From Patescibacteria group bacterium (GTDB taxonomy: Bacteria; Patescibacteriota; Dojkabacteria; JAKAPS01), in assembly GCA_025450075.1 (NCBI GenBank), contig JANWIC010000011.1, positions 902-64,901 on the forward strand: a stretch of DNA of 64,000 nt, in the 5' to 3' direction. The notes below the pieces were generated by a model. It had not been told where the DNA came from. It searched no databases and saw only the letters and a program-made list of their open reading frames with translations. Below are positions 863-60,578 of this stretch, in pieces. The translations under genes and the position numbers were made by a program. Every line of letters starts with the position of its first letter. The stretch's first letter is position 1.

Positions 863-2584
863 TTAGAATGAGAACGTTTTATCGCTTAATAGTGAATCTT
901 TTTGGGTTTTACCGTTAAAGCTGACTGATACTCCTAAAGAAGATGTACCTGGTTGCTTGTATATATACATACTATACCCGTCTGTTGAAAAGTTTGAAGG
1001 CAAGCTGTACTTTATCACTAATTGCAGTTGTGAAGGTGTGCTTGAAACAGAATCTGTTGAAGGAACTGAAATATGGTCATCTGCAACCGAATACCCCATT
1101 TCACGGTAAGCTCTTAGTGTCCCATCTGCACCTAAAATACTTTCAACCCTGCTTCCTGAAGGTAGATAGATCCGTACCCATGCTTCATACTTTCCATTTT
1201 TTGCAGGATCCTTATCATAGTTATTTACATATGTAATGGTAAGTGTATGTTCCAAGCCGTTTAACTGACTATTCAAACTTCTTGATATATCAGTTATATC
1301 TTTTTGTCCTCCAAGGTTCTCTTCACTCAAACCGATAAAATCTGATCCTGTATTAAGTGGAAATGCTCCACCTAATCCATATTGATTAACAGTATCCTCA
1401 GTTTGTTGATCATCAGCATACAGTATAATATCTTTTTGCATAAATGCTGATTGCAGCATTTTCATAACTGAAACAAGTGAATCACCCTGTGTGTTAAATA
1501 GTTGATTTCCTAAACTCTCTAAAAATATAGGATTTGAAATATATTGTGATAGGTTTAAATCTGTTACTTGGATATGAGAAGAAGGGAGTGAAACCGGTCC
1601 TATTGTTTGTATTACACGAGAAATGAATGAGTGATCTATTGTAACGATCCCGCTCGTATGTTCAATAGAAGGTATTGAGTAATATAATTTTTCAAATTGT
1701 TGCGCACTTGTTACAAAATCCGGGCTTTGATTTGCCCTATCAATACCTAAATTTGCAGTTTTAACATATGCCTGGAGTGTTACTGATGGGCTTGTAGTGC
1801 TCAAAAGCATTTGGTTTAATCCGGATATTGCATTTATCTTAATAGGATTTAATTTCCCCTGAACAAAATCGAGATACCCATACCCGTTTATTTTTCCTCC
1901 TGTCGGAAGAAGTGTTGTTTCATCTTGTATCAAAAGAAGATATGACCTGTTACTAAAAGACCTTTCAAGAATCGGAGTCAATGAATCAAGTTTTGGAAGG
2001 AATGCTATAACGGATTGAAAAGAATCATTAAACGAATTATATGAAGTTTTTAAATCTTTTCCTAAAAATGTTTCTTTCGGTATATAGTGTGGATCAACGA
2101 GCGCAAATGAATTTTGTGCATAGGTAAAATCTGTCATTGCATTATCAATTGTTGGGATAAGTGCTGGAAGTGCATTTAAAAAGGAATCAGTAGAATCTCC
2201 AAAACCTAATGCATTTGCAACTTGTGCGCTATGTTGTGCAATGTTATTTGCACCTGTCGCAATAGATTGGAACCCGGAAATCATATTATCAGCATCCTGA
2301 TAATATTTACTTGTAAAAGGAAGAAGGTTTAAAAGACTAACGGAATGTAATTGTGTATGAAGATTATCAAGATCAGGTCCTAACTTTTGAATACCAATTA
2401 CCAGTCCTTCATAGGAATGTGATGCATATTGTGTTTGAATATATGAGACATCCTGATTTACTTTATCATAAGCGGATGAGATACTTCTCATGCCATTGAT
2501 TAAATATCCACCGATTAAGATTGCAATAATTCCAAGAAAAATACTCAAACAGGAGAATTTTTTATGTTTTGATATCATTCTCAT
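863..2584 (-). CDS. DUF4012-family membrane-anchored protein associated with cell-surface polysaccharide loci
   Basis: 573 aa with an N-terminal TM helix. Signature stretch YLLLIQDETTLLPTGGKINGYGYL resembles the DUF4012 LLL-QN-ELR-TGG-G motif. Sits directly beside a run of GT4 glycosyltransferases. Confidence 0.5.
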   Translation of the reverse strand: MRMISKHKKFSCLSIFLGIIAILIGGYLINGMRSISSAYDKVNQDVSYIQTQYASHSYEGLVIGIQKLGPDLDNLHTQLHSVSLLNLLPFTSKYYQDADNMISGFQSIATGANNIAQHSAQVANALGFGDSTDSFLNALPALIPTIDNAMTDFTYAQNSFALVDPHYIPKETFLGKDLKTSYNSFNDSFQSVIAFLPKLDSLTPILERSFSNRSYLLLIQDETTLLPTGGKINGYGYLDFVQGKLNPIKINAISGLNQMLLSTTSPSVTLQAYVKTANLGIDRANQSPDFVTSAQQFEKLYYSIPSIEHTSGIVTIDHSFISRVIQTIGPVSLPSSHIQVTDLNLSQYISNPIFLESLGNQLFNTQGDSLVSVMKMLQSAFMQKDIILYADDQQTEDTVNQYGLGGAFPLNTGSDFIGLSEENLGGQKDITDISRSLNSQLNGLEHTLTITYVNNYDKDPAKNGKYEAWVRIYLPSGSRVESILGADGTLRAYREMGYSVADDHISVPSTDSVSSTPSQLQLVIKYSLPSNFSTDGYSMYIYKQPGTSSLGVSVSFNGKTQKDSLLSDKTFSF

Positions 2585-5284: not shown

Positions 5285-6338
5285 GTCCTTTTTCCCGCAA
5301 AGAATCCCTCAATACCTTATCATCAACGATTTTCTTTAGCAACTCCGCAGCATAAGTCAGGTTAAATTCCTTTGAATCAATTGGCATGCGTAAAGCACTA
5401 TCCTGATATACCTCTTCATATACAGGGATATCAGATATCAGGCAAGGTATTCCGCATGCCATATTCTCAAGCACTGACAAACCAAAACCTTCATACGAAG
5501 AAAGATTGCAATATGCATCAGCATGCTGCATCAAACGAATCTTTTCTTCATCTGATACAAACCCTAAAAAATGGATGGATTCAGATGCATATGAACTGTA
5601 TGCCTCATAACCATCTCCTATGCATACTAGACTATATCCTTGTTCATCATATTGTTCTTTGAATTTTTTGAATACTTCTAATAATAATGAAACATTTTTA
5701 TTCGGTTCATATCCTCCGTAATACAAGATATATTTAGAAGGAACTTTATGTTCTGGAATACCCTGATCTTGCTCAAATCTGGATATATCAACTCCTAATG
5801 GGACAATATCTATTTGGTGCAAATTAAATTTCGATTCTAAATCAAGTTTGGATACTTCTGAGTTAGTTAAAATTCTGTCCGCATATTTTAACAACTTCCA
5901 ATCCTGCATGTATTGTTGTTTCTTCATGAAATTTATAGCTGGATTTAGTGAATACCTACCAGTTGTTGCCTGAATTATGTCATGTACAAAGCATACTGTC
6001 ACATACTGCTTTGGATTGTAAGGCACACCGGAATGGATAAACGGAGAAAAAAATGCTTTAAGTTTTTTACCTTGGCTTGATGAAATATATGTATTGATTC
6101 GGGAATATAGGCCACTTTTATATTTAAATTTTGTAATAGGGGTAAGCGCTATAGACATACCAATATCAACAAAGGAAACTTCTTTTGGAATTTGTATTGT
6201 CGAGCTTGTGGAAAATCCGAATAACACGATTTCTTCAGGGTGCTCCAGAATCCATCTAGAAACAATTTCTTTTGTTACATTTCCAATTCCTCTATATCGA
6301 AATTGGTTCTGGGTTGTGGTGATATCAATACCTATCAT
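5208..6338 (-). CDS. Glycosyltransferase family 4
   Basis: 376 aa. YEGFGLSVLENMACGIPCLISDIPVYEEV is the classic GT1/GT4 nucleotide-sugar binding motif. Confidence 0.75.
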   Translation of the reverse strand: MIGIDITTTQNQFRYRGIGNVTKEIVSRWILEHPEEIVLFGFSTSSTIQIPKEVSFVDIGMSIALTPITKFKYKSGLYSRINTYISSSQGKKLKAFFSPFIHSGVPYNPKQYVTVCFVHDIIQATTGRYSLNPAINFMKKQQYMQDWKLLKYADRILTNSEVSKLDLESKFNLHQIDIVPLGVDISRFEQDQGIPEHKVPSKYILYYGGYEPNKNVSLLLEVFKKFKEQYDEQGYSLVCIGDGYEAYSSYASESIHFLGFVSDEEKIRLMQHADAYCNLSSYEGFGLSVLENMACGIPCLISDIPVYEEVYQDSALRMPIDSKEFNLTYAAELLKKIVDDKVLRDSLREKGLEKSRFYTWDNTYSKVRDILLQYER

Positions 6339-9533: not shown

Positions 9534-12068
9534 ATGGATGCAATAAAAAATACAGCTTTGAAAGACATTATCTCTAGTATTACAGACTCTTTAATCTCCT
9601 ATTTACTGCAAAACTCTAAAGATGTTTTGTATGTAAACATGCCACCAGTAAAAATTCCTGAGAAGTTTGAACGTTATATTACTATTGATGACAGGATCCC
9701 TTCAAAGAAATTTGATACCATTATTATAAATATGGATAAAGAAGTAAATGCCGAAAAGGTGGCAAAATATGTCAATAAATTTCAAAAGTATCTCCTTTTG
9801 GTGCATGGTAACAATCAATTTTTTGATCCGCGAAGTTATCCTGAAGTACGAATTGCAATTAGTACATCTCCAATAATTGAACACGTTCATACATTCACAA
9901 AATTAAGTGAAGGCTACAAAGAATTTCGAGATTCACAAGAGAAATTACAAAAATTTATCAAAGAGCATCATTTAAAACTTGGCATAATTGCACCAACGAC
10001 ACAGAATCAATTTGACCATATCCTCATTTTCCATGACAATAATTTAAAGGATCTCTTTATATCATATATTGAAAATGAAAAGAATGAAGATATTTTTCAC
10101 GAATTCTATTCCATGACCTTTTCCCAATATGCAAAGCATATTGACAGCAGGAATATTCGTTTCCAGAAAAATGCTTCCTACCTTATTAAACAATTACAAA
10201 CTGGAAGCAATAGTACCAAAAGAGGAATATCATCGATTTTTCATTCATTGCAATTACATTTGCCTATCATCATACAAAAGATGCGAGGGAAATCAAATGC
10301 AATTGGATCAAAATTACAAAAAGGAATTCAGACTATTTCTAAAGCAAGAACAAATATTCCAAAAGTAGAAAACAAAGAAAAACTCACCAATAAAAAACCT
10401 CATATGCAGTTAAAAACTGCAACTATACAAAAGGAGAAAGTATCGTCTCAATTGGACAAATTAAAAGTTACACTTTATCAAAGACAACACATTCCTATGG
10501 TGAAAACGATGTCATATGAATCATTTCTTGCAAGACAAAAAAAAGGATTTTTAGAACAATTACAGGAACGACGTTCTTTGCAAACTCTCAAACTACAACC
10601 GAAAGTATCCATACTTTTGGTTGTTGATGATATTGATGAAATTTGGTTAAACAAATCTGTTCGATCAATTAAAGACCAGACATATAAACACTGGGAACTG
10701 GTTATAGTTGATAATTGTTCTCCTAGGACATATTTGAAATCATATTTATCATCTTTAAATGATCCACGAATTAAAACCCATTTCTATAACACAAAAAAGA
10801 CATATGCAGAATGTCTTTCCCATGCATATAAAGTGGCGAAAGGTGAATATTTAGCAATTCTTCATGAAGGAGATGAATTGGATATCAATCTTCTATATCA
10901 TTTTGTTCGGGAAATCAACAAAGAATCGTCACTCGAGTTTATCTATTGTGATGAAGATGAAATTAATGAACAGGGAAAACGAGTTCATCCATTTATCAAA
11001 CCTGCTTGGGATAAAACTCTCATTCTATCTTATCCATATGCAAAAAATATATTTGTTGCAAAGCGGGAATTGCTTGAAAGGATAGATGGATTTAAAAACC
11101 TTGCTACAAAAGACCCGTTATGGGATATCATGATCAAAACAAGAAGTGCAACAAATAATATTGGCCATATCTCTAAAATCTTGTACCATAAACGCCATCG
11201 TCCACTCCAGTCAGGAACACCAAAACAGGTCTATCCTGATGCAATTAAACAATTTATGGCAAGAGAAACAATCCAGGGTGTTGTTAAAGAATCACAATAT
11301 CCGGGAAGCTTTTATATCATTGATAAGCAAGTACAAAATCCACAAGTGTCTTTAGTATTGATTGAGCAAAACCCTGACAACCTCGCAAAGTTTCTGGAGA
11401 ATTTCTCCTGTTCATACAATCAATTTGATATTCATGCCGTATTACCAGTAAATACCCAATTCTCAAACAAGGAAAACATCTATCTCCATTCATTCCAAGA
11501 TTTCTCATTTAGCAAAATTACACAACAAATTCTTCAAGAAAGTAATAGTGACTATCTGCTCTTCATCGACAGTAGGATTCGACCTGTTAATTCGGATTTT
11601 TTATCTATTATGCTTAGTTACAGTCAAAATCGTGCTATAGTTGGAACTAAAATCCTTGATCCGGATGACATGGTTATTCATTCGATGTATGTCCTCAATC
11701 TCCGAGAGGTTGTATCAAGTCTTTATGAAGGACAGATTGATCAAGGCCAATTTGATATATCAATCACACGAGAATGCAGTGCTGTTTCAAGAAAATGTAT
11801 GCTTGTACCAAAGGAATTTCTTCTTACTCATCAATTAGATGATGGATATACTTCATCATATGCTGATATTGATTTGTGTCTGCAGGCACAAAAAGATCAA
11901 ATTCCAGTTATATATACTCCTGATGCATATGCAAAAGCAATTTATGCTTATTCCAAAGAAAAGTTTCACGAGGCAGATACGGTCTATTTTATAAAGAAGT
12001 GGAAAGAAAAGTTAAAAGGAAATGATCCATTCATAGATATCTCCCGTTTCCTATCAATCAAAGCGTAG
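9534..12068 (+). CDS. Large multidomain glycosyltransferase: unknown N-terminal domain followed by two GT2 (GT-A) domains
   Basis: 844 aa. First GT2 signature VSILLVVDDIDEIWLNKSVRSIKDQTYKHWELVIVDNCSP. Second GT-A-like domain runs from about aa 600 (QVSLVLIEQNPDN... DDGYTSSYADIDLCLQ). The N-terminal 350 aa have no recognisable motif. Confidence 0.6.
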   Translation: MDAIKNTALKDIISSITDSLISYLLQNSKDVLYVNMPPVKIPEKFERYITIDDRIPSKKFDTIIINMDKEVNAEKVAKYVNKFQKYLLLVHGNNQFFDPRSYPEVRIAISTSPIIEHVHTFTKLSEGYKEFRDSQEKLQKFIKEHHLKLGIIAPTTQNQFDHILIFHDNNLKDLFISYIENEKNEDIFHEFYSMTFSQYAKHIDSRNIRFQKNASYLIKQLQTGSNSTKRGISSIFHSLQLHLPIIIQKMRGKSNAIGSKLQKGIQTISKARTNIPKVENKEKLTNKKPHMQLKTATIQKEKVSSQLDKLKVTLYQRQHIPMVKTMSYESFLARQKKGFLEQLQERRSLQTLKLQPKVSILLVVDDIDEIWLNKSVRSIKDQTYKHWELVIVDNCSPRTYLKSYLSSLNDPRIKTHFYNTKKTYAECLSHAYKVAKGEYLAILHEGDELDINLLYHFVREINKESSLEFIYCDEDEINEQGKRVHPFIKPAWDKTLILSYPYAKNIFVAKRELLERIDGFKNLATKDPLWDIMIKTRSATNNIGHISKILYHKRHRPLQSGTPKQVYPDAIKQFMARETIQGVVKESQYPGSFYIIDKQVQNPQVSLVLIEQNPDNLAKFLENFSCSYNQFDIHAVLPVNTQFSNKENIYLHSFQDFSFSKITQQILQESNSDYLLFIDSRIRPVNSDFLSIMLSYSQNRAIVGTKILDPDDMVIHSMYVLNLREVVSSLYEGQIDQGQFDISITRECSAVSRKCMLVPKEFLLTHQLDDGYTSSYADIDLCLQAQKDQIPVIYTPDAYAKAIYAYSKEKFHEADTVYFIKKWKEKLKGNDPFIDISRFLSIKA

Positions 12069-14570
12069 AGGCTGGTTAGGGAGTATCTGAGTTCTTCTTT
12101 CTTCATGATGTGAACGTTCTTCTTCAAAAAGAGGTGCAGAAACATTTTTTATCTCTTCATGTTTGAATTGATATGCTTTCATACTCCATTCCTTTATCCA
12201 TTCGTTTACATCTGCTTCAGGGGATGCATACATTGTTCTACTGTATCGCAATATTTCATCCCGAATATGTGTAGCAGCAAAAGGCATTTGGATACTTGCA
12301 GCACTAAATGGTTTTGATACAACTCCTTGTATCATCAGCTTCACATAGACCTCATATCTATCAAGACTCATAAGATCATTTGCTGATAGAATTGGAAGAA
12401 ATTCTCTTTCCAGCACTTGCGCATCTGGGGACCCGAGAACAAAGGTAATGAGCGTTCCAATATTTCCCATGATCGCATCTTTTACATGTTCTTCAAGTTG
12501 TGAAAGATGTTGATGTGCAAGAATTAAATCAAGACGATATTTCCTTGCCTCTGAAAGGATTTTTGTAAATACATCGGTTGCAAACACCTGGAATTCATCG
12601 ATATAGAGATAGAAATCCTCTCTCTGGCTTTCTAAAATACTTACCCTTGCCATTGCAGCCATTTGCATTTTTGTAATTACTAGGCTACCAAGAAGTGAAG
12701 CATTTTCTTCGCCAATTTTCCCTTGAGAAACGTTGCATAAGAATATTTTCTTCTTATTCATGATTTCATCAAAATCAATTTTGTTATGTGTTTGACCAAT
12801 AATATTCCGAAGCATCGGTGATGAAACAAATCGTCCAACTTTGTTTTGAATCGGGGTAATTGCCTCAGTTACTAATCTCGGATTTCTTTCCATATATGCA
12901 TATTCTTCATTCCAAAACTTTTGCAGTATCGGATCTGTTATATTGGAAACGACATATTGTCGATATCCTTTATCAGTAAGCATACGGGATATACCAAGAA
13001 GAGTTGCATCAGGAGTATATAAAAGACTTAATATGACATTATGTAAAATATATTCTAGACGTGGTCCCCATGAATCAAAATGTTTTTTAAATACTGCAAG
13101 GATGCTTGCTGCAATATATTCTCTCTGGGAAGGATGGTCAAATGCAAATATGTTTAAAGAGGCAGGATAAGCAGAATCAGATGGATCAAGCAAGACCACA
13201 TCTTCAACCCGTTCAGATGGAATATGTTCAAGTATTTCATCAATCAGGTCGCCATGAGGATCTATTACACCAACCCCATTACCGGCAAGGATGTCTTGCA
13301 AAATCATATTGCACAGCATTGTCGTCTTACCGCTCCCAGTTTTTCCAAGAAGATACATATGTTTCCTTCTATCTTCTTTCAAAATCCCAAACTGTTTCCC
13401 TCCGCCTCGGTAATTTGTCTGTGCTATGGTAAGCATATTATCTGTCGGCAAATTTAATGGTGGATCAGATCTTCTTGCTTTGAGCCAAATAATTTCTGGT
13501 GTTGTTATGTTTGCATGAGGAAGATGATAAAGTGTAGCAATTTCTGCACAACTGAAAATATCCTGCGCTTCAACATCCAAAAATCTAGTTTTATAATGGT
13601 CAAGCATTTGAGCAGTATATTTATCATTATCCTGTAATACTTTTAATGAATTAAGATGGAATGAATCAACTTGTTTCAGTGCATGAATTACATTTAACAG
13701 GTGTTCTTCAGCCCTCTTTACATCTTGAGATGAAGAAACAATACGAATAGTGCCAGCATAACCATGCTGATGGAATTTTTCTTCGATGGAGTGAATTTCC
13801 TCTTCTTGTGTCTTATCAAGCATCACATTAGATTTTACTTTCCAATGTCTTACTCCAAATATCCATTCATAGATCCTTGTTGTTACGGTAAAAATTGATA
13901 GCCCTGCTTTCCAACCGCTTTTTATTTTAGTCCCTTTTTGCCACGCGGTTAAGTATTCTTTCCCTGCTTTGTGCCAGCTATCATGTAGCGGCCTTATGAC
14001 AAACTGTATTCCCATAGAATCAAACTGCTCCATCCCACCTAATGAAGATGTGATTGATGAAAGTAAATCAACATGAAATTGTTCTCCTGTTTTTATTGGG
14101 AAAAGTGATTCTTTTTCCAATTCGATTTCTGCAGCCTTTATGGTCATTTGCATTTCTCCCCCCATATGCAAACCCTGGGCATAATCATCAACGACATTAA
14201 TCTCTGCTGAAGGATAATGTGCATACCATTGTCCTTCTATATAGTTTTTGTATTGCCGGGGACATACGATATACCATTGGATACCAAAAGGTGTAGCATA
14301 ATATTCACAACTCAAATGGACATAAGAATGTCTCTTTTTTCCCACTATGCTGTGCATAGATGAAAAAAGTTGTTGCGCTTGATCATAGGAAGAAAGATCC
14401 TGTTTCGGGACAAGAATTCGTAATACAACACAATCTTGTATTGTTTCCTCAATATTGTCGATATCAAGATCCCGATTGCGGATAATTTCAATAATTACCG
14501 ATACTGAGATGATAACAATAATTGCAATGATCCAACCAATGCCAAACTCTGGTATTGAAAAAAGAGGCAT
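12054..14570 (-). CDS. Membrane-anchored FtsK/HerA/VirD4-superfamily P-loop ATPase (type IV coupling protein-like, DUF87-like)
   Basis: 838 aa with an N-terminal TM helix and a roughly 400-aa domain without recognisable motifs. Walker A GKTGSGKTT followed by VIDPHGDL. Walker B FYLYIDEFQ. AHQHLSQL resembles the TQS..QL motif of TraD/VirD4/HerA ATPases. Confidence 0.55.
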   Translation of the reverse strand: MPLFSIPEFGIGWIIAIIVIISVSVIIEIIRNRDLDIDNIEETIQDCVVLRILVPKQDLSSYDQAQQLFSSMHSIVGKKRHSYVHLSCEYYATPFGIQWYIVCPRQYKNYIEGQWYAHYPSAEINVVDDYAQGLHMGGEMQMTIKAAEIELEKESLFPIKTGEQFHVDLLSSITSSLGGMEQFDSMGIQFVIRPLHDSWHKAGKEYLTAWQKGTKIKSGWKAGLSIFTVTTRIYEWIFGVRHWKVKSNVMLDKTQEEEIHSIEEKFHQHGYAGTIRIVSSSQDVKRAEEHLLNVIHALKQVDSFHLNSLKVLQDNDKYTAQMLDHYKTRFLDVEAQDIFSCAEIATLYHLPHANITTPEIIWLKARRSDPPLNLPTDNMLTIAQTNYRGGGKQFGILKEDRRKHMYLLGKTGSGKTTMLCNMILQDILAGNGVGVIDPHGDLIDEILEHIPSERVEDVVLLDPSDSAYPASLNIFAFDHPSQREYIAASILAVFKKHFDSWGPRLEYILHNVILSLLYTPDATLLGISRMLTDKGYRQYVVSNITDPILQKFWNEEYAYMERNPRLVTEAITPIQNKVGRFVSSPMLRNIIGQTHNKIDFDEIMNKKKIFLCNVSQGKIGEENASLLGSLVITKMQMAAMARVSILESQREDFYLYIDEFQVFATDVFTKILSEARKYRLDLILAHQHLSQLEEHVKDAIMGNIGTLITFVLGSPDAQVLEREFLPILSANDLMSLDRYEVYVKLMIQGVVSKPFSAASIQMPFAATHIRDEILRYSRTMYASPEADVNEWIKEWSMKAYQFKHEEIKNVSAPLFEEERSHHEERRTQILPNQPLRFD

Positions 14571-14630: not shown

Positions 14631-17624
14631 TTAAGAAAATGATACGTAGAGAATTTTATCATCCACTCCTATAGGTTTTCCTTGTTGTTCACCTGTTTCT
14701 TTAACAGAAGATGCATTCACTGCTTTTTGCAATATCATCGAATTTTTTGCTACAAGATCTGTTAGTTCCTGGTTATCAGAGAAATATACAAGATGTATCT
14801 TATCATCCATCTTCAAATTTTCATCTTTTCGCATACTTTGGATATATCGGATGATTTCCCTAAGCATTCCTTCCTCTTTCAATTCTGGCGTGATACGGGT
14901 ATCTAGAGTTACAAAAAGGTGCATTGCTTCTCCATCTTCAGATTGAGTAACAAATCCTTCAGCTACTTTGCCATTTTGAGAATATATAACTTCCTTTACA
15001 TTCAGCTCATCTTTAATGATTTCTTGCATATCTTCATCTTTGATCGGCACAATTGCACTTGCAAGTGGCTGTCGAACTTTCAGACTGTTTGTCACTCGGA
15101 TACTTTGACCAAGAGATGAAAGCTTCCGGACAATTGCCATGCTTTCCAAAATCTTTGTGTTGATTTCTTTTGTCGTATCTGGATAAAATTCAAGATGCAC
15201 TGATTCCTTAGCTTCTTTTAACCCTGCACCTACAACAAGATTTTGGTAAATCTCTTCAGTTAGAAAAGGCATTTGTGGAGCAAAAGTCTTTGCATATTGC
15301 ACCATTACGGCATAAAGTGTTTGCAAGGCATCAGTGTCTCCCTCAGCAAATCTTTCCCTTGATCTTCTGATAAACCAGCTTGAGATCCCATCGATCGCTT
15401 CCTGTGCAAGTTTTACAGATGAAGGTATATTATATGCTTCTAGTCTGGAAGCATATTCTTTACTTATCATAAGCATGTATTCTCTTACCCAAATATCAAG
15501 CGGATTAGAAGATGTATATGCAGTTGTTTTTGGAGTCCAGTTATGGACATTTGCATAAATCACCAGATATTTATATGTATTCCAGATAGGAAGCAAAACA
15601 TTTTTAATCTGTTCTTTCAAAAGTTCATCTGACCAGTTCATATCATCTCCAACCATGATAGGAGATCCCATCATATACAATCGGAGTGCTTCTCCTCCAA
15701 TATGCTCAAGCACTTCCTTCGGATCAGGATAGTTTCCATAAGATTTACTCATCTTTCTTCCATCATTTCCTGCAAGAACTCCTGTACAAATGACATTTTT
15801 AAATGCAGTATCATCAAATATGATAGTTGAAAGCCTGAGAAGCACATTAAACCATGCCCGAACTTGGCCAATATATTCAATGATATAGTCGGCAGGACCG
15901 GATTGTTCATACACTTCTTTGTTTTCAAATGGATAATGGTATTCTGCAAATGGGACAGATCCTGAATCCATCCAGCAGTCTAATACTTCAGGTACACGGT
16001 GATATTCCTTACCATCTTTTTTCAGAACTATCTTATCTCCCACATCTTTATGAAGATCGAAGGGTTTATTCTCAAAGAAATATGATACTTTTCCATTTAC
16101 TTCCTTCTTACTCACCTGGTCAGTATATGTCAATAACTCTGCAATACTGCCGATGACAATTTCATCTCCATCTTCATTTACCCAGATTGGCATGATTGTT
16201 GCCCAGAAACGGTTTCGGGAAATACACCAGTCTGGAGATGTCGCAACAGTTTGAGCAAATCTTCCATCTTTAATATATTCCGGTATCCAATTTAATTCCT
16301 GGTTCAATTCAAGCATTCTATCCTTGATCTTTTGAATATTGATAAAATATGCATCCTGTGCCATATATATCAATGGGTTTTCACCTCGATAAAACGGTAA
16401 CCTGTGTGTATAGGGAAGCGATCGAAGTAATCGCTCTTTTTGCTGCATATCTTCCGCAACGAGTGGAGAGGCATCTCGAAGATATATTCCTACCCATGGA
16501 TCCAAAGTCATTTTCCCTGCTTCATCAATATCCGGGATTGCACTTAATTCATGTTTCAATCCAAAATTGAAATCGACCTCTCCAAATGCAGGAGCTATAT
16601 GAAGGACTCCAGTTCCTTCATCAAGAACGACATCATCACTTATATAAACATGAAAATCATTTTCCTGTTTTTTGTCTTCAAAAAATGTATAAACTGGTTC
16701 ATAAGCCAGTCCATCAAGCTTTTTCCCTTTAAAAGTATCACATATCTGGACAGCCATATCAGGCTCAGTTCCAACCTCGTTATCATGTACACCAAATGTA
16801 TAAGCCACCCTGTCTTTGGCAACAATAAAGTATTCACCAATATATTTGACTAGGCAATAATCTGCTTTTTCATTTACTGCTAATGCAAAGTTTGCAGGAA
16901 TCGTCCAAGGAGTTGTAGTCCATGCGACCATATATACAGGCTCAGTTTTGTTGAAAGGATTCTTTTCCTGAAGTGGAAACTTCACAAAGACGCTGAGATC
17001 TTCAACATCTTTATAGTTATCAGCATCCATAGCAACTTCAAATTGAGATACTGGTGTTGATGTATCTGTCGAAAACATTGATACCCGCTTTCCTTTATAT
17101 ATAAGACCTTTATCATAGATCTGCTTAAATCCCCATATAACTGATTCCATATATTCAGTACTCATGGTGTAATATGCATGATCCATGTCTACCCATCTGC
17201 CTATTTTATCAATATACCATCGCCAATCTGATGTGCATGTTTTGATATATTCCTTACATGCATCAATATAAGCATCAACTCCAACCCTATTTTCAATTTC
17301 TGCACTGGATTTAATTCCTAATTTTTTATTCACTTTTTCCTCAATTGGTAATCCATGGCAATCCCACCCCCATACTCTTCTTACTTTCTTCCCTTTCATA
17401 GTCCAGTATCTGGGTATAACATCTTTTGCAATAGAAGGCAGTAATGATCCGTAATGAGGATTTCCTGTTACAAACGGTGGTCCGTCAACAAACTTATACC
17501 TGTCATCATCAGGTCTTTGGTCGACTGACTTTTGAAAGATATCATGTTCTTTCCAGAATGCTGTGATTCGATCTTCCATCTGGGGAAAATTAACACGTTC
17601 ATCCACTTTTTTAAATGCTGCCAT
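14631..17624 (-). CDS. ileS: Isoleucyl-tRNA synthetase
   Basis: About 1000 aa class I aaRS. GWDCHGLPIE (IleS-specific), KMSKS (KMSKSYGNYPDP) and a HIGH-region variant PHYGSL. The ORF track begins at a TTG at 17645; the ATG at 17624 (MAAFKKVDERVNFPQ...) is the likelier start. Confidence 0.85.
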   Translation of the reverse strand: MAAFKKVDERVNFPQMEDRITAFWKEHDIFQKSVDQRPDDDRYKFVDGPPFVTGNPHYGSLLPSIAKDVIPRYWTMKGKKVRRVWGWDCHGLPIEEKVNKKLGIKSSAEIENRVGVDAYIDACKEYIKTCTSDWRWYIDKIGRWVDMDHAYYTMSTEYMESVIWGFKQIYDKGLIYKGKRVSMFSTDTSTPVSQFEVAMDADNYKDVEDLSVFVKFPLQEKNPFNKTEPVYMVAWTTTPWTIPANFALAVNEKADYCLVKYIGEYFIVAKDRVAYTFGVHDNEVGTEPDMAVQICDTFKGKKLDGLAYEPVYTFFEDKKQENDFHVYISDDVVLDEGTGVLHIAPAFGEVDFNFGLKHELSAIPDIDEAGKMTLDPWVGIYLRDASPLVAEDMQQKERLLRSLPYTHRLPFYRGENPLIYMAQDAYFINIQKIKDRMLELNQELNWIPEYIKDGRFAQTVATSPDWCISRNRFWATIMPIWVNEDGDEIVIGSIAELLTYTDQVSKKEVNGKVSYFFENKPFDLHKDVGDKIVLKKDGKEYHRVPEVLDCWMDSGSVPFAEYHYPFENKEVYEQSGPADYIIEYIGQVRAWFNVLLRLSTIIFDDTAFKNVICTGVLAGNDGRKMSKSYGNYPDPKEVLEHIGGEALRLYMMGSPIMVGDDMNWSDELLKEQIKNVLLPIWNTYKYLVIYANVHNWTPKTTAYTSSNPLDIWVREYMLMISKEYASRLEAYNIPSSVKLAQEAIDGISSWFIRRSRERFAEGDTDALQTLYAVMVQYAKTFAPQMPFLTEEIYQNLVVGAGLKEAKESVHLEFYPDTTKEINTKILESMAIVRKLSSLGQSIRVTNSLKVRQPLASAIVPIKDEDMQEIIKDELNVKEVIYSQNGKVAEGFVTQSEDGEAMHLFVTLDTRITPELKEEGMLREIIRYIQSMRKDENLKMDDKIHLVYFSDNQELTDLVAKNSMILQKAVNASSVKETGEQQGKPIGVDDKILYVSFS

Positions 17625-17830
17625 AACTATATTGATAAAATACAAAAAAACACCCTTATCTCAGGGTGTTTTAAAACACGTACCGTCCTGTTTCGTCATA
17701 GAGTTTATGACCTTTTTTCGCTGTTTCGGGCTTACCCGTCCGGTTCTACTTAGCTTTTCTGCTTTTCTTCCGGCTCCTTGCTGCTGATAACAGCTTAATC
17801 GGATGGCATCATTATATACAAAATATGAAT
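17625..17830 (-). promoter_or_regulatory. Candidate T-box riboswitch leader of ileS (transcription attenuation type)
   Basis: Minus-strand RNA contains hairpin GCUG-UUAUCAG-CAGC with the Ile codon AUC followed by A in the terminal loop (AUC at 17786-17788). Stem III-like hairpin GUCAUA/UAUGAC. T-box-like AACAGGACGGUACGUG. The antiterminator (CAGG - 7-nt bulge ACGGUAC - GUGUU/AACAC - CCUG) has a 3' strand that is the 5' strand of the intrinsic terminator. Confidence 0.5.
17643..17672 (-). terminator. Leader intrinsic terminator (attenuator) upstream of ileS
   Basis: Minus strand: AACACCCUGAGAUAAGGGUGUU followed by UUUUUUU, about 20 nt before the ileS ATG. It overlaps the putative antiterminator. 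Confidence 0.55.
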
Positions 17831-17835
17831 AAATG

Positions 17836-18597
17836 TTAAGGGTGCGTGTCGAGAAACTTGCAGGCCATTTCCCAAACTTGCTCTCGATCTCCATCTACTG
17901 GAAGACTATGAGCAGAATGTTCGAAATATGCGATATATTTATCTTTGCTTGTTATCAGGCTATATAGCTCTTCTCCGCTTCCTTGAGGGATAATACCATC
18001 ATGTTTGCCTATCATAATGAGTAAAGCTCCGGAATATTCCTTTGCTTGTGAACGCACCATTTGTACAAGATGTAAAAAGTGCGGAAGTGCTTCAATCGGT
18101 ACATGCGGATATGATATGGTAGTAAATGGTGGAGCATATCCAGACGGATCTGTTCCACCTTCGATAACATACCATTTGATAAAATACCTTGCTACTGGGA
18201 TGATATACCAGCGCCATTCAGGTTTAAACATGGGGGGCGACATAACAACGACGGTCTTTGTCTTGTTCTTTATCCCGAGTAAAATACTAATCAACGATCC
18301 CATCGATTGCCCGATGATATATATGTCTTTGTATTTTTTTTGCAGTTCATCATATGATGCCTGGCTTTTATCTAACCAGTCTTTCCATGTTACTTTTTTC
18401 ATATCTTCTGGAATTGTACCATGTCCCGGTAAGAGAATTGCTGAAACTGCATACCCGTTCCGGAATAAATAATCAGCAAAACCTTTAAATTCACCTGCGC
18501 TTCCGCTAAACCCATGAATTAAAAGGACAGCCTTTTGACCGTCATTATGGAGTGTAAATGCTTCTGGATTGATATAGTAGTCGTCTTTTGTTTCCAT
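17836..18597 (-). CDS. Alpha/beta-hydrolase, carboxylesterase (Est/YvaK-like)
   Basis: 253 aa. LLIHGFSGS...GQSMGS (GxSxG nucleophile elbow). Size and motif spacing match the small carboxylesterase family. Confidence 0.65.
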   Translation of the reverse strand: METKDDYYINPEAFTLHNDGQKAVLLIHGFSGSAGEFKGFADYLFRNGYAVSAILLPGHGTIPEDMKKVTWKDWLDKSQASYDELQKKYKDIYIIGQSMGSLISILLGIKNKTKTVVVMSPPMFKPEWRWYIIPVARYFIKWYVIEGGTDPSGYAPPFTTISYPHVPIEALPHFLHLVQMVRSQAKEYSGALLIMIGKHDGIIPQGSGEELYSLITSKDKYIAYFEHSAHSLPVDGDREQVWEMACKFLDTHP

Positions 18598-21988: not shown

Positions 21989-22039
21989 TTAAAATATGCT
22001 AACAATTAAGAAATAATATTGCAAATATATATTTCTTAG

Positions 22040-22200
22040 GTTACAATACAAACAGAAAGCGTATGAGGCAGATTTTCCACCTGCCGAGCTGTTCGAGGTA
22101 ACAATCGAACCGGGATGCCCGTAATAGCAATAATCAAGTATTCGTTAAGGTGGCACCTTCAAGCCTAGCTTGACCTTAACATAATGTATATTATGTTACC
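22040..22200 (+). promoter_or_regulatory. Candidate T-box riboswitch leader of serS (translational type, no terminator)
   Basis: Hairpin GGCAG-AUUUUCCAC-CUGCC at 22067-22085 with the Ser codon UCC followed by A in the loop. Textbook antiterminator at 22144-22178: UUAAGG / 7-nt bulge UGGCACC / UCAAGC-CUA-GCUUGA / CCUUAA. UGGC is complementary to the GCCA end of tRNA-Ser (discriminator G). An alternative 9-bp hairpin at 22176-22197 abuts the start codon. Confidence 0.6.
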
Positions 22201-22203
22201 CTT

Positions 22204-23448
22204 ATGGTCAATCTAAAAGATCTTCTTCAAAATCCAGAAAAATACAAAAAAGCAATAATTGATAAAGGATATAATCCTGAACTTGTTGATTCTGTAGTAC
22301 AATTTAGTATGAAACAAAAAGAATTAGTTTCAGAAGTTGAAAATCTTAGAGCAGAAAGGAAACAATTAGGAAAGAATAACAATACTTCCATAGATGAAGG
22401 GAAACTCATTAAAGAAAAATTGAAGCAATTAGAACCGGAAGCAGACAAAATCCAGGAGGAATTGCAGCGTGTTCTTAACCAGATTCCTAATCCCGCATTA
22501 CCTGATGTTCCTGTTGGAAAAGGTGAAGAAGATAATGTAGAAATTAAAAAATTTGGAAATATACCTCAATTTTCATTTGAACCAAAAAACCATCTTGAAC
22601 TTGGTGAAAAGTTGCATATTCTCGATTTCACAACAGGAAGCAAAGTTACCGGTACCCAATTCTATTTCCTTTTAGGTGATGGAGCAATGCTAGAACTTGC
22701 ATTAACGCAATTTGCATTTAAGAAACTCATCAATAAAGGATTTACACCTGTCATTACCCCTGATCTTGCAAAATCCCGCTTCTACTTAGGAACAGGATAT
22801 GTACCAAAGGGAAATGAAGCGCAAACATACGTCATTGAAGGAGAAGATCTCGGACTAATTGCAACCTCAGAAGTCACTCTTGCTGGGAGACATGCAGATG
22901 AATCAATACCAGAAGAATCACTGCCGCTAATGTATGTAGGTTTATCTCATGCTTTTAGACAGGAAGCAGGTGCATACGGAAAATATTCTAAAGGATTATA
23001 CCGTGTTCATCAATTTTCAAAAATTGAAATGTTTGTCTACTCAACACCTGAGGAATCTGCAAAATACCATGACATGCTTCTTGGCATTGAAGAGGAAATT
23101 TATCAGGATCTTCAAATTCCATACCGAGTACTGGAGATGTGTACAGGTGATCTTGGTGCAATTGCTGCAAAAAAATATGATATAGAAGCATGGATGCCGG
23201 GAAGAAACGGATATGGTGAAGTAACATCTACTTCAAATTGTACGGATTACCAGGCAAGAAATCTTAATATTAGGATTAAGATGGGAGATGGAACACACGT
23301 ATACGCACATATGCTCAATGGTACAGCGATAGCAATATCCAGAACACTCATTGCAATACTTGAAAATTATCAGCAAGAAGATGGATCTGTGATAATCCCT
23401 GAAATATTACGGTCATATATGGATAAAGATGTCATTCGAGCAGCATAA
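22204..23448 (+). CDS. serS: Seryl-tRNA synthetase
   Basis: 414 aa. N-terminal coiled-coil arm, then class II core motifs (e.g. FRQEAGAYGKYSKGLYRVHQFSKIEMF and GTAIAISRTLIAILENYQ). Confidence 0.9.
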   Translation: MVNLKDLLQNPEKYKKAIIDKGYNPELVDSVVQFSMKQKELVSEVENLRAERKQLGKNNNTSIDEGKLIKEKLKQLEPEADKIQEELQRVLNQIPNPALPDVPVGKGEEDNVEIKKFGNIPQFSFEPKNHLELGEKLHILDFTTGSKVTGTQFYFLLGDGAMLELALTQFAFKKLINKGFTPVITPDLAKSRFYLGTGYVPKGNEAQTYVIEGEDLGLIATSEVTLAGRHADESIPEESLPLMYVGLSHAFRQEAGAYGKYSKGLYRVHQFSKIEMFVYSTPEESAKYHDMLLGIEEEIYQDLQIPYRVLEMCTGDLGAIAAKKYDIEAWMPGRNGYGEVTSTSNCTDYQARNLNIRIKMGDGTHVYAHMLNGTAIAISRTLIAILENYQQEDGSVIIPEILRSYMDKDVIRAA

Positions 23449-34886: not shown

Positions 34887-34959
34887 TGACCCTACCGGGA
34901 TTCGAACCCGGATTGTTGGAATGAGAATCCAATGTCCTAAACCATTAGACGATAGGGCC
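34887..34959 (-). tRNA. tRNA-Glu (anticodon CUC)
   Basis: Cloverleaf folds cleanly: acceptor GGCCCUA/UAGGGUC, T-loop UUCGAAU with a 5-bp GC stem, anticodon stem UUGGA/UCCAA and loop UUCUCAU. No encoded CCA. A TATAAT box lies about 13 nt upstream. Confidence 0.8.
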
Positions 34960-46461: not shown

Positions 46462-48525
46462 TTAAGTTATATTGACCCGTTCAACATGAGAAACTTTTTG
46501 AATCTTTTTTAATTTTCTAATCAGTGTCTCAAGTTGACCTTTGGAAGTAACATTTACTGCGATTCTACCATTAAATCCATTATTATTCCATGAATCAAGT
46601 TTTTCTATCCCAATTTTCATATCAGATAAGAGTTTTGAAATCTCTTTGATCATCCCGGTATTATCCTGGGATGTCGTTTGAATATATAGACCTGTCAAAA
46701 ACTCTTTTTTCATGTTTGCCCATTCTGCTTCCAAAAGGACTTTGTAATCCAAAATTTCAAGTTCCTTACAATTTTTCCTATGAATCCTTATCCCTCGCGT
46801 TTTTGTTACATGTCCGATTATATCATCACCGGGTATTGGTGAACAACATTTTGCGATGCTGCAATCAATATTTTCAATTCCTTTTATCTTAACCAGATTC
46901 GCTTCTGAAATTTTTTCCGAAATGACTTTCCTCTCTTCATCCTCAAAAGGAATAAATTCAAGCTTTTCTTGCAATCGATTGGATTCTTCATTCTCTTTTT
47001 CGTCTTCTGCCTGTTCTTCTATTGCTTCCTCTTCCCGAAAAGCTCTTCGTATATTAGCACGGGCATAAGGAGTTTTGGCAAAATTAAGCCAGTCCATACT
47101 TGGCTTCACTCTTTTTTTATCAAGTAATACTTCAATTACATCACCAGTTTGAACTTCATAACTTAATGGTTTTATTACACCGTTCACTTTTACGCCTCTG
47201 CATGCATTTCCGATATTTGTATGGATAAGATATGCAAAATCTATTGCAGTTGCTCCTTTAGGAAGTTCTTTCACGTCTCCGTTAGGTGTAAAGACAAAGA
47301 CTTTGTCTTTAAAAACATCCACTTTATAGTATTCAATATTTTTTATTTCATCTCTCCATCTGACAAGGCTTTTTAAAAAGCCAATTTTGGATCCTAGGAT
47401 TGAAACATTCTTTTCCTTTTCTTTGTAATAGATATGTGATGCTGGCCCATATTCGTTATATTCCTGCATCTTGTAGGTTTTAATCTGCAATGCTGTCTTC
47501 ACTCCTTCTTTGCTAACAAGACATGTGTGGATTGATCGGTATCCATTACTTTTTGGTTTTGCAATATAGTCGTCAAAAAGATAAGCTAAATGCTCATGCT
47601 GACTATGCATAATACCGAGTACCCTATAACACTCTGAGATTGAATTAACAAGAATGGTTATACCGATAAGATCATTTACCTCTTTTATATCTTCGACAAG
47701 AAATTCACCATGTTTTTTCAACAACTTCCTGTAAATACTATACACACCTTTATGCCTGCCGAATACTTCTCCTTTAATATGATAGTCTTTTAATATCTTT
47801 GAAAAGTATGCAACATGCTTAGTGATAAAAGTTTCGCGATTAATACTTTTTCCTCCTTCTTTCAAAGCATTTGTGCGAAGATATGTTTCTATTTGCTCAT
47901 AAATTTCTGGCTCAATAATCTTGAAAGAATAATCTTCCAGTTTTTTTCGAAAGAAATTAATGCCGACAAAATCAGCCAACGGAGCATAGAATTTCAACGT
48001 TTCCAGTGCATTCTCCCTTTGTCTGTCTAGAGCAAGTGCTTGCACAGTCATAATATTATGCATCCTGTCTGCAAGCTTGATAAGAATTACTCTGATATCT
48101 TTTGTAGATGCAATCAGAAGTTTCCGAAGTGTTTCAAAATCATCTTGGGAATGCTTTACTTTTTTAGTTACTTTTTTGATTTTTGTTAATCCATCTACTA
48201 AAAATGCGGTATCTTCTCCAAATTTCTCTTTTATTTCATCAAGTGTCAGAGGTGTATCTTCAACTGTATCATGGAGAAGTGCGGCAATAACTGAGGATTC
48301 ATCAAGCTTAATTAATGCAGTGAAATATGCTACATAGAGAGGATGATGAATATATGCCTCTCCGGTTTTTCTTTTTTGTCCTTCATGGGAAAGAGAGGCA
48401 AGCGTGTATGCATCTTCTACTCGGGAAGTGTTCGATTTAGGGAAATTTGTTTTGAGAATCTTTATGATGCTCTCTATTGTAATATCTTCCCGTTCAATAT
48501 CTTCAAGGGTCTGGTAACCAATCAC
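46462..48525 (-). CDS. rel: Bifunctional (p)ppGpp synthetase/hydrolase RelA/SpoT homolog
   Basis: 687 aa. HD hydrolase (HDTVEDT), synthetase (RSIHTCL... YRS), TGS and C-terminal ACT-like domains. Confidence 0.9.
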   Translation of the reverse strand: MIGYQTLEDIEREDITIESIIKILKTNFPKSNTSRVEDAYTLASLSHEGQKRKTGEAYIHHPLYVAYFTALIKLDESSVIAALLHDTVEDTPLTLDEIKEKFGEDTAFLVDGLTKIKKVTKKVKHSQDDFETLRKLLIASTKDIRVILIKLADRMHNIMTVQALALDRQRENALETLKFYAPLADFVGINFFRKKLEDYSFKIIEPEIYEQIETYLRTNALKEGGKSINRETFITKHVAYFSKILKDYHIKGEVFGRHKGVYSIYRKLLKKHGEFLVEDIKEVNDLIGITILVNSISECYRVLGIMHSQHEHLAYLFDDYIAKPKSNGYRSIHTCLVSKEGVKTALQIKTYKMQEYNEYGPASHIYYKEKEKNVSILGSKIGFLKSLVRWRDEIKNIEYYKVDVFKDKVFVFTPNGDVKELPKGATAIDFAYLIHTNIGNACRGVKVNGVIKPLSYEVQTGDVIEVLLDKKRVKPSMDWLNFAKTPYARANIRRAFREEEAIEEQAEDEKENEESNRLQEKLEFIPFEDEERKVISEKISEANLVKIKGIENIDCSIAKCCSPIPGDDIIGHVTKTRGIRIHRKNCKELEILDYKVLLEAEWANMKKEFLTGLYIQTTSQDNTGMIKEISKLLSDMKIGIEKLDSWNNNGFNGRIAVNVTSKGQLETLIRKLKKIQKVSHVERVNIT

Positions 48526-60252: not shown

Positions 60253-60562
60253 CCAGTAGTTCAAGTGGCTGCGTATATGGATTCCATATATGAGGAAAGT
60301 CCGAGCTCAGGCAGACCTAGTCTGCAGACGTGCTGGGTAACACCCAGGGGGGAGTGATCTTCCGAATAGGGCAACAGAAAATATACAGCTAAGGTTTCTT
60401 AGCAATGGTGAAATGGCAGGGTAAGAGCCTACCGCTTGCCTAGTAATAGACAAGGCAGTGCAACCTCCACATGAGCAAGTAGAGAACTACGCATGAGCTT
60501 TAGTGAGAACTAGAGCCTAGATAGATAGCCACATAAACAGAACTCGGCTTACGGACTACTGG
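60253..60562 (+). ncRNA. rnpB: RNase P RNA, bacterial type A
   Basis: P1 CCAGUAGU...ACUACUGG. P4 GAGGAAAGUCCGAGCUC. GGGUAACACCCAGGGGGGAG. GGGCAACAGAAA. GGUGAAAUGGCAGGGUAAGAGCCUACC. ACAGAACUCGGCUUA. All align to the M1 RNA consensus. No ORF in this span. Confidence 0.9.
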
Positions 60563-60578
60563 TATTAAATATTTACAT

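Follow-up and report, generated by a model that had tools for sequence, protein, structure and literature searches.

The leader of the isoleucyl-tRNA synthetase gene ileS, about 165 nt long and located within a 64,000-nt stretch of DNA from a Patescibacteria group bacterium (hereafter, the window; G+C about 35%), is very probably a tRNA-Ile-responsive T-box riboswitch of the rare ultrashort-Stem-I (US) type, acting by transcription attenuation. Judged by evidence that is computational throughout, the leader is a departure from the described US members in its terminator output, in the phylum of its host, in a conserved remodelling of the T-box bulge and in having a Ser-specific sibling in the same genome.

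Read on the minus strand, the leader fills the gap between an alpha/beta-hydrolase gene (17836-18597) and ileS (14631-17624 (-), ATG at 17622-17624), whose translation is an isoleucyl-tRNA synthetase (IleRS) of 997 aa; homologues of this protein contain the Pfam domains tRNA-synt_1 and Anticodon_1, and are named isoleucyl-tRNA synthetase in their sources. A sigma-70-type promoter, TTAACA-17 nt-TATAAT (17811-17839 (-)), was identified by a promoter scan with 11/12 matches and overlaps the stop codon of the hydrolase gene, which puts the inferred transcript start near 17804. About 10 nt separate this start from a small hairpin, GCUG-UUAUCAG-CAGC (17780-17794 (-)), and a long Stem I carrying an elbow-binding platform is absent. 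The hairpin, already described in the original prediction, has a 4-bp stem (GCUG/CAGC) and a 7-nt loop, UUAUCAG, which contains the specifier AUC (17786-17788) with an A directly 3' of it.

Stem II (17740-17773 (-)) is composed of a lower helix, CCGG/CCGG, an internal loop, AAGAAA / AGUAGAA, predicted by its sequence motif to be of the S-turn type, and an upper helix, AGC/GCU, in the strand order CCGG-AAGAAA-AGC...GCU-AAGUAGAA-CCGG. The Stem IIA hairpin, CGGG-UAAG-CCCG (CGGGUAAGCCCG, 17727-17738 (-)), was recognised by sequence and by its covarying pairs; together with the purine-rich tail that follows it, AAACAGCGAAAAAAGG, it spans positions 17711-17738 (-), and the putative IIB pseudoknot is limited to 2 bp (GC/GC). 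The promoter, Stem II and Stem IIA are additions to the original prediction. The hairpin originally called Stem III-like, GUCAU-AAACUCU-AUGAC (17695-17711 (-)), is present in both the minimum free energy (MFE) and the centroid folds. Purines border it at both ends, AAAAAAGG 5' and GAAA 3' of the hairpin, and GAAACAGGACGGUACGUG (17677-17694 (-)) lies downstream of it.

The antiterminator (17662-17690 (-)) comprises helix A1 (CAGG/CCUG), a 7-nt T-box bulge, ACGGUAC (17680-17686, with CGGU at 17682-17685), and helix A2 (GUGUU/AACAC). The predicted fold, with an energy of -5.4 kcal/mol, reproduces exactly the helices and bulge that had been proposed. A terminator scan placed an intrinsic terminator at 17640-17672 (-), in the form AAAACACCCUG-AGAUAA-(C)AGGGUGUUUU followed by a U run; the hairpin, AAAACACCCUGAGAUAAGGGUGUUUU-U7 (17643-17672), has 10 pairs, a 6-nt loop and a T-run, and ends about 19-20 nt before the ileS ATG. 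As had been claimed, the 3' strand of the antiterminator is the 5' strand of the terminator: AACACCCUG is common to both arms, and the two forms are mutually exclusive. The energy comparison suggested at the same time favours the terminator hairpin, at a predicted -13.6 kcal/mol vs -5.4 kcal/mol, and both values are within the usual T-box range: TBDB gives antiterminators a mean of -7.4 +/- 4.2 kcal/mol and terminators one of -19.5 +/- 7.9 kcal/mol.

Sequence and comparison show a promoter that places the transcript start about 10 nt ahead of the small hairpin, with AUC-A in its loop, and a T-box strand able to adopt either the weak bulged antiterminator or, by means of the shared AACACCCUG, the stronger U7 terminator. 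If the established T-box mechanism applies, the anticodon of uncharged tRNA-Ile(GAU) would pair with AUC and be held by the Stem II purines, while the 3' ACCA of the tRNA would pair with the bulge (U-A73, G-C74, G-C75, with C opposite A76). Docking of the tRNA would stabilise the antiterminator, letting RNA polymerase read through into ileS; charged tRNA-Ile could not dock, the terminator would form and transcription would stop about 20 nt before the start codon.

A score below threshold with the Rfam T-box model, RF00230, had been named in the original prediction as speaking against it, and the leader did score below threshold. RF00230 gave no match at the gathering threshold (93 bits) in the window, none in the 341 nt around the ileS leader, even at E <= 10, and no T-box match in 20 related ileS loci. 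More generally, neither a T-box nor any other meaningful Rfam family was found in the window, in the ileS leader (E <= 10), in the serS leader described below or in the 20 related loci; weak matches of CRISPR-DR63 and SpF41 within the ileS leader correspond merely to the terminator hairpin and were rejected. By the comparative evidence reported here, the missing match reflects the reliance of RF00230 on a long Stem I and not the absence of a T-box. The best RF00230 match among the homologues, in a Saccharibacteria genome (L011), reached 30.8 bits (E 0.0033) in a full-length alignment; here 78 distal Stem I positions are deleted, and the S-turn, IIA, Stem III and AAGGUGGUACCGCC are matched.

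Homologous leaders were searched by using nhmmer, with the ileS leader as query. Weak yet significant matches were found immediately 5' of ileS, or of an operon whose last gene is ileS, in Pacebacteria (L056), Saccharibacteria (L011, L059) and two unclassified genomes (L003, L006) of the candidate phyla radiation (CPR). Metagenome contigs were scanned with a pattern built on the conserved motifs of the leader (TATCA-N14-GAAGAAA-gap-AKTAGA-gap-GGTAC), and at least 120 loci were obtained. Among the matches listed, 39 are low- or mid-GC leaders in which a 4-bp stem carries a YUAUCAN loop; 30 have an ileS match downstream, and in the remaining 9 the contig mostly stops before ileS could be seen. 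A second set among the matches listed consists of 41 high-GC leaders sharing the same core motifs (for example GGGGUAUCACCGGGG...GAAGAAA...AGUAGAACCGGACGGGAGGGCCCGACACAGCC...GGGGUGGUACCGCGGG), with an ileS match downstream in 29 and more than 400 nt of downstream sequence in 27; they are taken to be the actinobacterial translational ileS T-boxes known from the literature. The remaining matches listed were discarded as chance matches in coding DNA.

In order to evaluate the structure, 44 low- or mid-GC leaders were aligned by MAFFT (alignment A3) and scored against a hand-written structure including Stem I, lower and upper Stem II, IIA, A1 and A2. Over the 25 pairs and 44 leaders, 92.8% of the cells are paired, vs 65.3% in shuffles and 30-48% when partners are slid by 1-3 columns; the covariation score is 0.767, vs 0.243 in shuffles and at most 0.19 in the slid alignments. 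Changes on both sides are seen in 22 of the 25 pairs. All four Stem I pairs covary, a support which is partly circular for the metagenome leaders, as these had been pre-selected for the 4-bp stem; the other helices were not selected for. Within Stem II, GAAGAAA is invariant and AGUAGA nearly so, and both motifs also occur in the high-GC, actinobacterial-type ileS leaders; the lower helix is 95.9% paired and covaries with double changes, and the upper helix is 88% paired. In IIA pairing reaches 99% and the third pair covaries, as do both antiterminator helices, A1 and A2. In many relatives the IIB loop-tail pairing also covaries (AAGC/GCUU, GUCU/AGAC, CGAU/AUCG, UCGCCA/UGGUGA), and the Stem III position is occupied by a hairpin of variable sequence. 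The proposed comparison with related ileS leaders revealed a conserved leader with covarying stems.

A covariance model, R2, was derived from 39 leaders by using the RNAalifold consensus structure and leaving out the window together with its whole clade. R2 matched the ileS leader of the window over its full length with 107.9 bits (E about 1e-21), and its clade relatives with 34-71 bits; the other model, R1, also matches high-GC ileS leaders, with about 34-85 bits. The fold of the ileS leader beats 200/200 dinucleotide shuffles (z = -2.8), which, together with the 107.9 bits assigned by a model blind to this leader, indicates a structure above chance. The window IleRS is closest to Patescibacteria (CPR) proteins: its N-terminal 278 aa are 65-69% identical to Dojkabacteria and unclassified CPR proteins, and the full-length protein is 60-67% identical to its nearest proteins among 5.8 billion, which belong to Patescibacteria/CPR. 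No T-box was detectable upstream of ileS in the closest named relatives, one labelled Dojkabacteria (L001) and one unclassified (L002).

The specifier was evaluated on the 19 ileS leaders found by protein homology or covariance model, that is, the set found without AUC in the query. AUC is present in the loop of all 19, and A is next to it in 18, while the other loop positions vary (UUAUCAG, CUAUCAC, CGAUCAA, CAAUCAC, CCAUCAC and others). The specifiers of the window, AUC for ileS and UCC for serS, are both NNC codons, the type reported as preferred in TBDB. Homologous leaders upstream of ileS in CPR genomes and metagenomes, covarying stems and an invariant AUC all agree with the transcriptional T-box first proposed for this gene. 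No tRNA-Ile gene was found in the window. Leader-peptide attenuation was considered and rejected, because the sole short ORF at the 5' end, AUGAUGCCAUCCGAUUAA, contains no Ile codons.

A second ultrashort-Stem-I T-box, recognised by covariance models and sequence, is located at 22062-22198 (+), before serS (22204-23448). The suggestion of a second T-box with a terminal-loop specifier at this gene was confirmed by the models derived from ileS leaders, R1 giving 38.2 bits and the leave-out model R2 36.2 bits (E about 4e-6; 22062-22199). A motif search over the window (GAAGAAA...AGUAGA...YGGNAC) had the ileS leader as its sole match, the serS leader being found by covariance model. In the serS leader the loop, AUUUUCCAC, contains UCC-A, and the bulge sequence is UGGCACC. 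The discriminator of bacterial tRNA-Ser is G73, which the fourth bulge base, C (UGGC), would fit. A promoter, TTGCAA-17-TACAAT, lies in the 22019-22213 (+) region. No U-run terminator was found in the serS leader, and serS (uuacccuuAUG; 22190-22203) is without a recognisable Shine-Dalgarno sequence. GGUCAA, located at codons 1-3, is able to base-pair with UUGACC, with predicted energies of -11.6 kcal/mol vs -8.4 kcal/mol for the anti-structure; this pairing suggests that the leader may act by start-codon occlusion, and a translational output is plausible.

Another Ser-type ultrashort T-box was found on a different contig (L209, 387-561 (+)), upstream of a His_Phos_1-serS operon, with loop AAUCCA, bulge UGGCACC and a U7 terminator. 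The SerRS encoded there is 65% identical to that of the window, and its nearest named relatives are Microgenomates. In three further serS relatives (L207, L208, L210) no leader was found, and serS is directly 3' of another gene.

The bulge of the ileS leader had originally been read as an imperfect acceptor match, CGGU. The reading is correct, and the variant is not a one-off, since AGG-A-CGGUA is conserved in 8 genomes (the window, L003, L006, L201, L202, L203, L204 and L206), corresponding to all the leader-bearing ileS loci with available DNA among the nearest IleRS relatives. Every true family member among the metagenome matches listed has UGGUACC. Compared with the common form, GGA-UGGUACC-G, the variant carries a U to C change at the base expected to pair with A76, a U to C change at alignment column 243, which deprives the preceding A of its partner and leaves it unpaired, and a C to G change at column 216, paired with C243. 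By these three joint changes the bulge is kept at 7-8 nt, one position further 5', and the base of A2 becomes a G-C pair; in the 44-leader alignment, G-U is the commonest pair at this position, and in a review this G-U wobble is named as the barrier against 3'-aminoacyl groups; it is described as belonging to the steric sieve. GGU fits A73-C74-C75, with C opposite A76; having C instead of the near-universal U as first bulge base, the variant would leave A76 unpaired or in an A-C mismatch. An unusual tRNA 3' end is not the cause, as UGGC is retained in the serS T-box of this genome. The CGGU variant has been conserved among IleRS proteins of 60-69% identity, which speaks for a functional role.

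What the variant does to the reading of the tRNA 3' end is the point on which the strongest alternative is based. A leader derived from a T-box might still bind the tRNA-Ile anticodon through a remodelled bulge (A-CGGU-AC, with G-C at the A2 base) blind to charging, and thus serve as a reporter of tRNA-Ile abundance or as a fixed attenuator. The C opposite A76 in 8/8 clade genomes and the missing G-U wobble at the A2 base would be expected of such a leader, and low 3'-end selectivity has been described, by published cryo-EM work, even in the Mycobacterium smegmatis ileS T-box. Pairing of GGU with A73-C75 is, however, preserved, and so are, across 60-69% IleRS identity, the bulge of 7-8 nt and the overlap of antiterminator and terminator, which argues for continued selection on acceptor-end docking; the bulge of the serS T-box in this genome has also stayed canonical. 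A charging-blind leader is accordingly regarded as improbable, and a T-box responsive to uncharged tRNA-Ile is preferred.

The output of the switch was evaluated in the relatives. By a strict criterion, a hairpin and a U-run directly after the antiterminator were found in 22 of the 44 evaluable low-GC relatives, a U-run was found in 1/41 high-GC leaders, and in the clade of the window 7/7 relatives have a hairpin with a U-run that overlaps the antiterminator. Translational control is known for the closest relatives that have been characterised, and about half of the low-GC relatives are without a clear terminator, so that a switch acting mainly on translation or on mRNA stability, as in the actinobacterial relatives, with an incidental hairpin and U-run, has to be weighed. 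It is judged very unlikely for the ileS leader of the window, where the hairpin is directly followed by U7, ending about 19 nt before the ATG, where no Shine-Dalgarno sequence is recognisable (uauaguuAUG; 17625-17645) and hence none is there to be sequestered, and whose clade relatives also have the overlapping hairpin and U-run in every case. It is hardly credible that the unit from promoter to terminator encodes a separate small RNA, or serves to terminate the upstream hydrolase gene, rather than regulating ileS: an sRNA gene would also consist of a promoter, some 160 nt and a terminator, but the 19 nt after the terminator leave no room for another ileS promoter, and the element travels with ileS or ileS-ending operons across phyla, whatever the upstream gene.

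The gene context of the leader varies among relatives. A GNAT acetyltransferase gene is found between the Ile T-box and ileS in L006 (2321-2877, apparently frameshifted), L203 (750-1289) and L206 (1949-2485), a position in which it would be co-regulated by tRNA-Ile; in L204 a GNAT gene (5534-6061) is located just downstream of ileS, and in the window there is none between leader and ileS. On an unrelated contig, L136, found by a chance pattern match, a T-box-like leader (2106-2281 (-); AAGGUGGUAAC, R1 25.4 bits) is positioned upstream of a GNAT acetyltransferase gene. In L005, L009, L050, L007, L061 and L078, which represent Gracilibacteria, Peribacteria and one unclassified Patescibacteria, the Ile T-box is 0.6-1.9 kb upstream of ileS, with at least one unrelated small gene in between, and the regulated unit would therefore be an operon. 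Saccharibacteria relatives have AAGGAG, vs no recognisable Shine-Dalgarno sequence at ileS and serS in the window. Directly downstream of ileS the window contains a TrwB-like coupling-protein gene (12054-14570 (-)), and the ileS-TrwB synteny is shared by the contig that encodes the nearest IleRS relative (P0002). The window further contains a class A RNase P RNA (60253-60566 (+), 215.9 bits), a tRNA-Glu(CUC) (34887-34959 (-)) and a RelA/SpoT homologue (46462-48525 (-)).

Some features were counted against the T-box reading, namely the missing Rfam match, C as first bulge base, G-C instead of G-U at the A2 base and a IIB of 2 bp. Against a transcriptional US reading was counted the published view, set out in a review (PMC7583486), that transcriptional T-boxes generally depend on the platform of a long Stem I to capture tRNA quickly. 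A broader proposal, tentative and rather doubtful at present, would be that CPR bacteria have their own lineage of US T-boxes, making a co-transcriptional decision without elbow contact, which spread to serS and acquired a remodelled 3'-end pocket in the clade of the window. If this is true, the pocket so altered, with an A left unpaired, C facing A76 and G-C for the G-U wobble, would be a variant form of acceptor-end docking or of charging discrimination. A US aptamer joined in nature to an intrinsic terminator would make the kinetic argument for a long Stem I directly testable, as would the use of the US architecture for serS and the conserved change at the base facing A76. Nothing relevant on T-boxes in CPR, Patescibacteria or Saccharibacteria was found in the searchable full-text literature, the coverage of which is incomplete; as far as this literature shows, regulation by a T-box would here be described for the first time in the candidate phyla radiation, whose organisms have tiny genomes and few known regulators.

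Compared with the canonical transcriptional T-box (RF00230; Bacillus subtilis tyrS and glyQS), the ileS leader shares the antiterminator/terminator competition in the leader of an aminoacyl-tRNA synthetase gene, the NNC specifier followed by a purine, the T-box strand with its GGNAC core, and the order of Stem II, IIA (with a putative IIB) and Stem III. It differs in its Stem I, a 15-nt hairpin in place of a stem of about 90 nt that includes a K-turn, an internal specifier loop and a platform of double T-loops, in giving no match to the Rfam model and in the C at the first bulge base.

An abstract by Sherwood, Grundy and Henkin from 2015 reportedly refers to "many", not all, actinobacterial US leaders as translational, so that transcriptional ultrashort leaders may already have been noted within Actinobacteria. 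Elsewhere the US class is described as translational (bioRxiv 10.1101/2023.02.28.530422; PMC1262725) and as restricted to ileS, and in TBDB, where it corresponds to 'class II', it is equated with translational control and was searched in Actinobacteria only (PMC7778990). The leader of the window resembles the actinobacterial US ileS T-boxes of M. smegmatis and M. tuberculosis in presenting AUC-A in the terminal loop of a short hairpin, in having no distal tRNA-elbow platform, in the GAAGAAA/AGUAGAA S-turn motif of Stem II, in the CGGG..CCCG IIA element, Stem III and 7-nt bulged T-box helix, and in its target, ileS; high-GC members of the class were both retrieved by the pattern derived from the window and matched by R1. 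Unlike them, it appears to act through an intrinsic terminator, not a Shine-Dalgarno sequestrator, its bulge reads A-CGGU-AC vs UGGU-ACC, with G-C at the base of A2, its host belongs to Patescibacteria/CPR and not to Actinobacteria, and the same genome uses the architecture, described for ileS only, for serS too.
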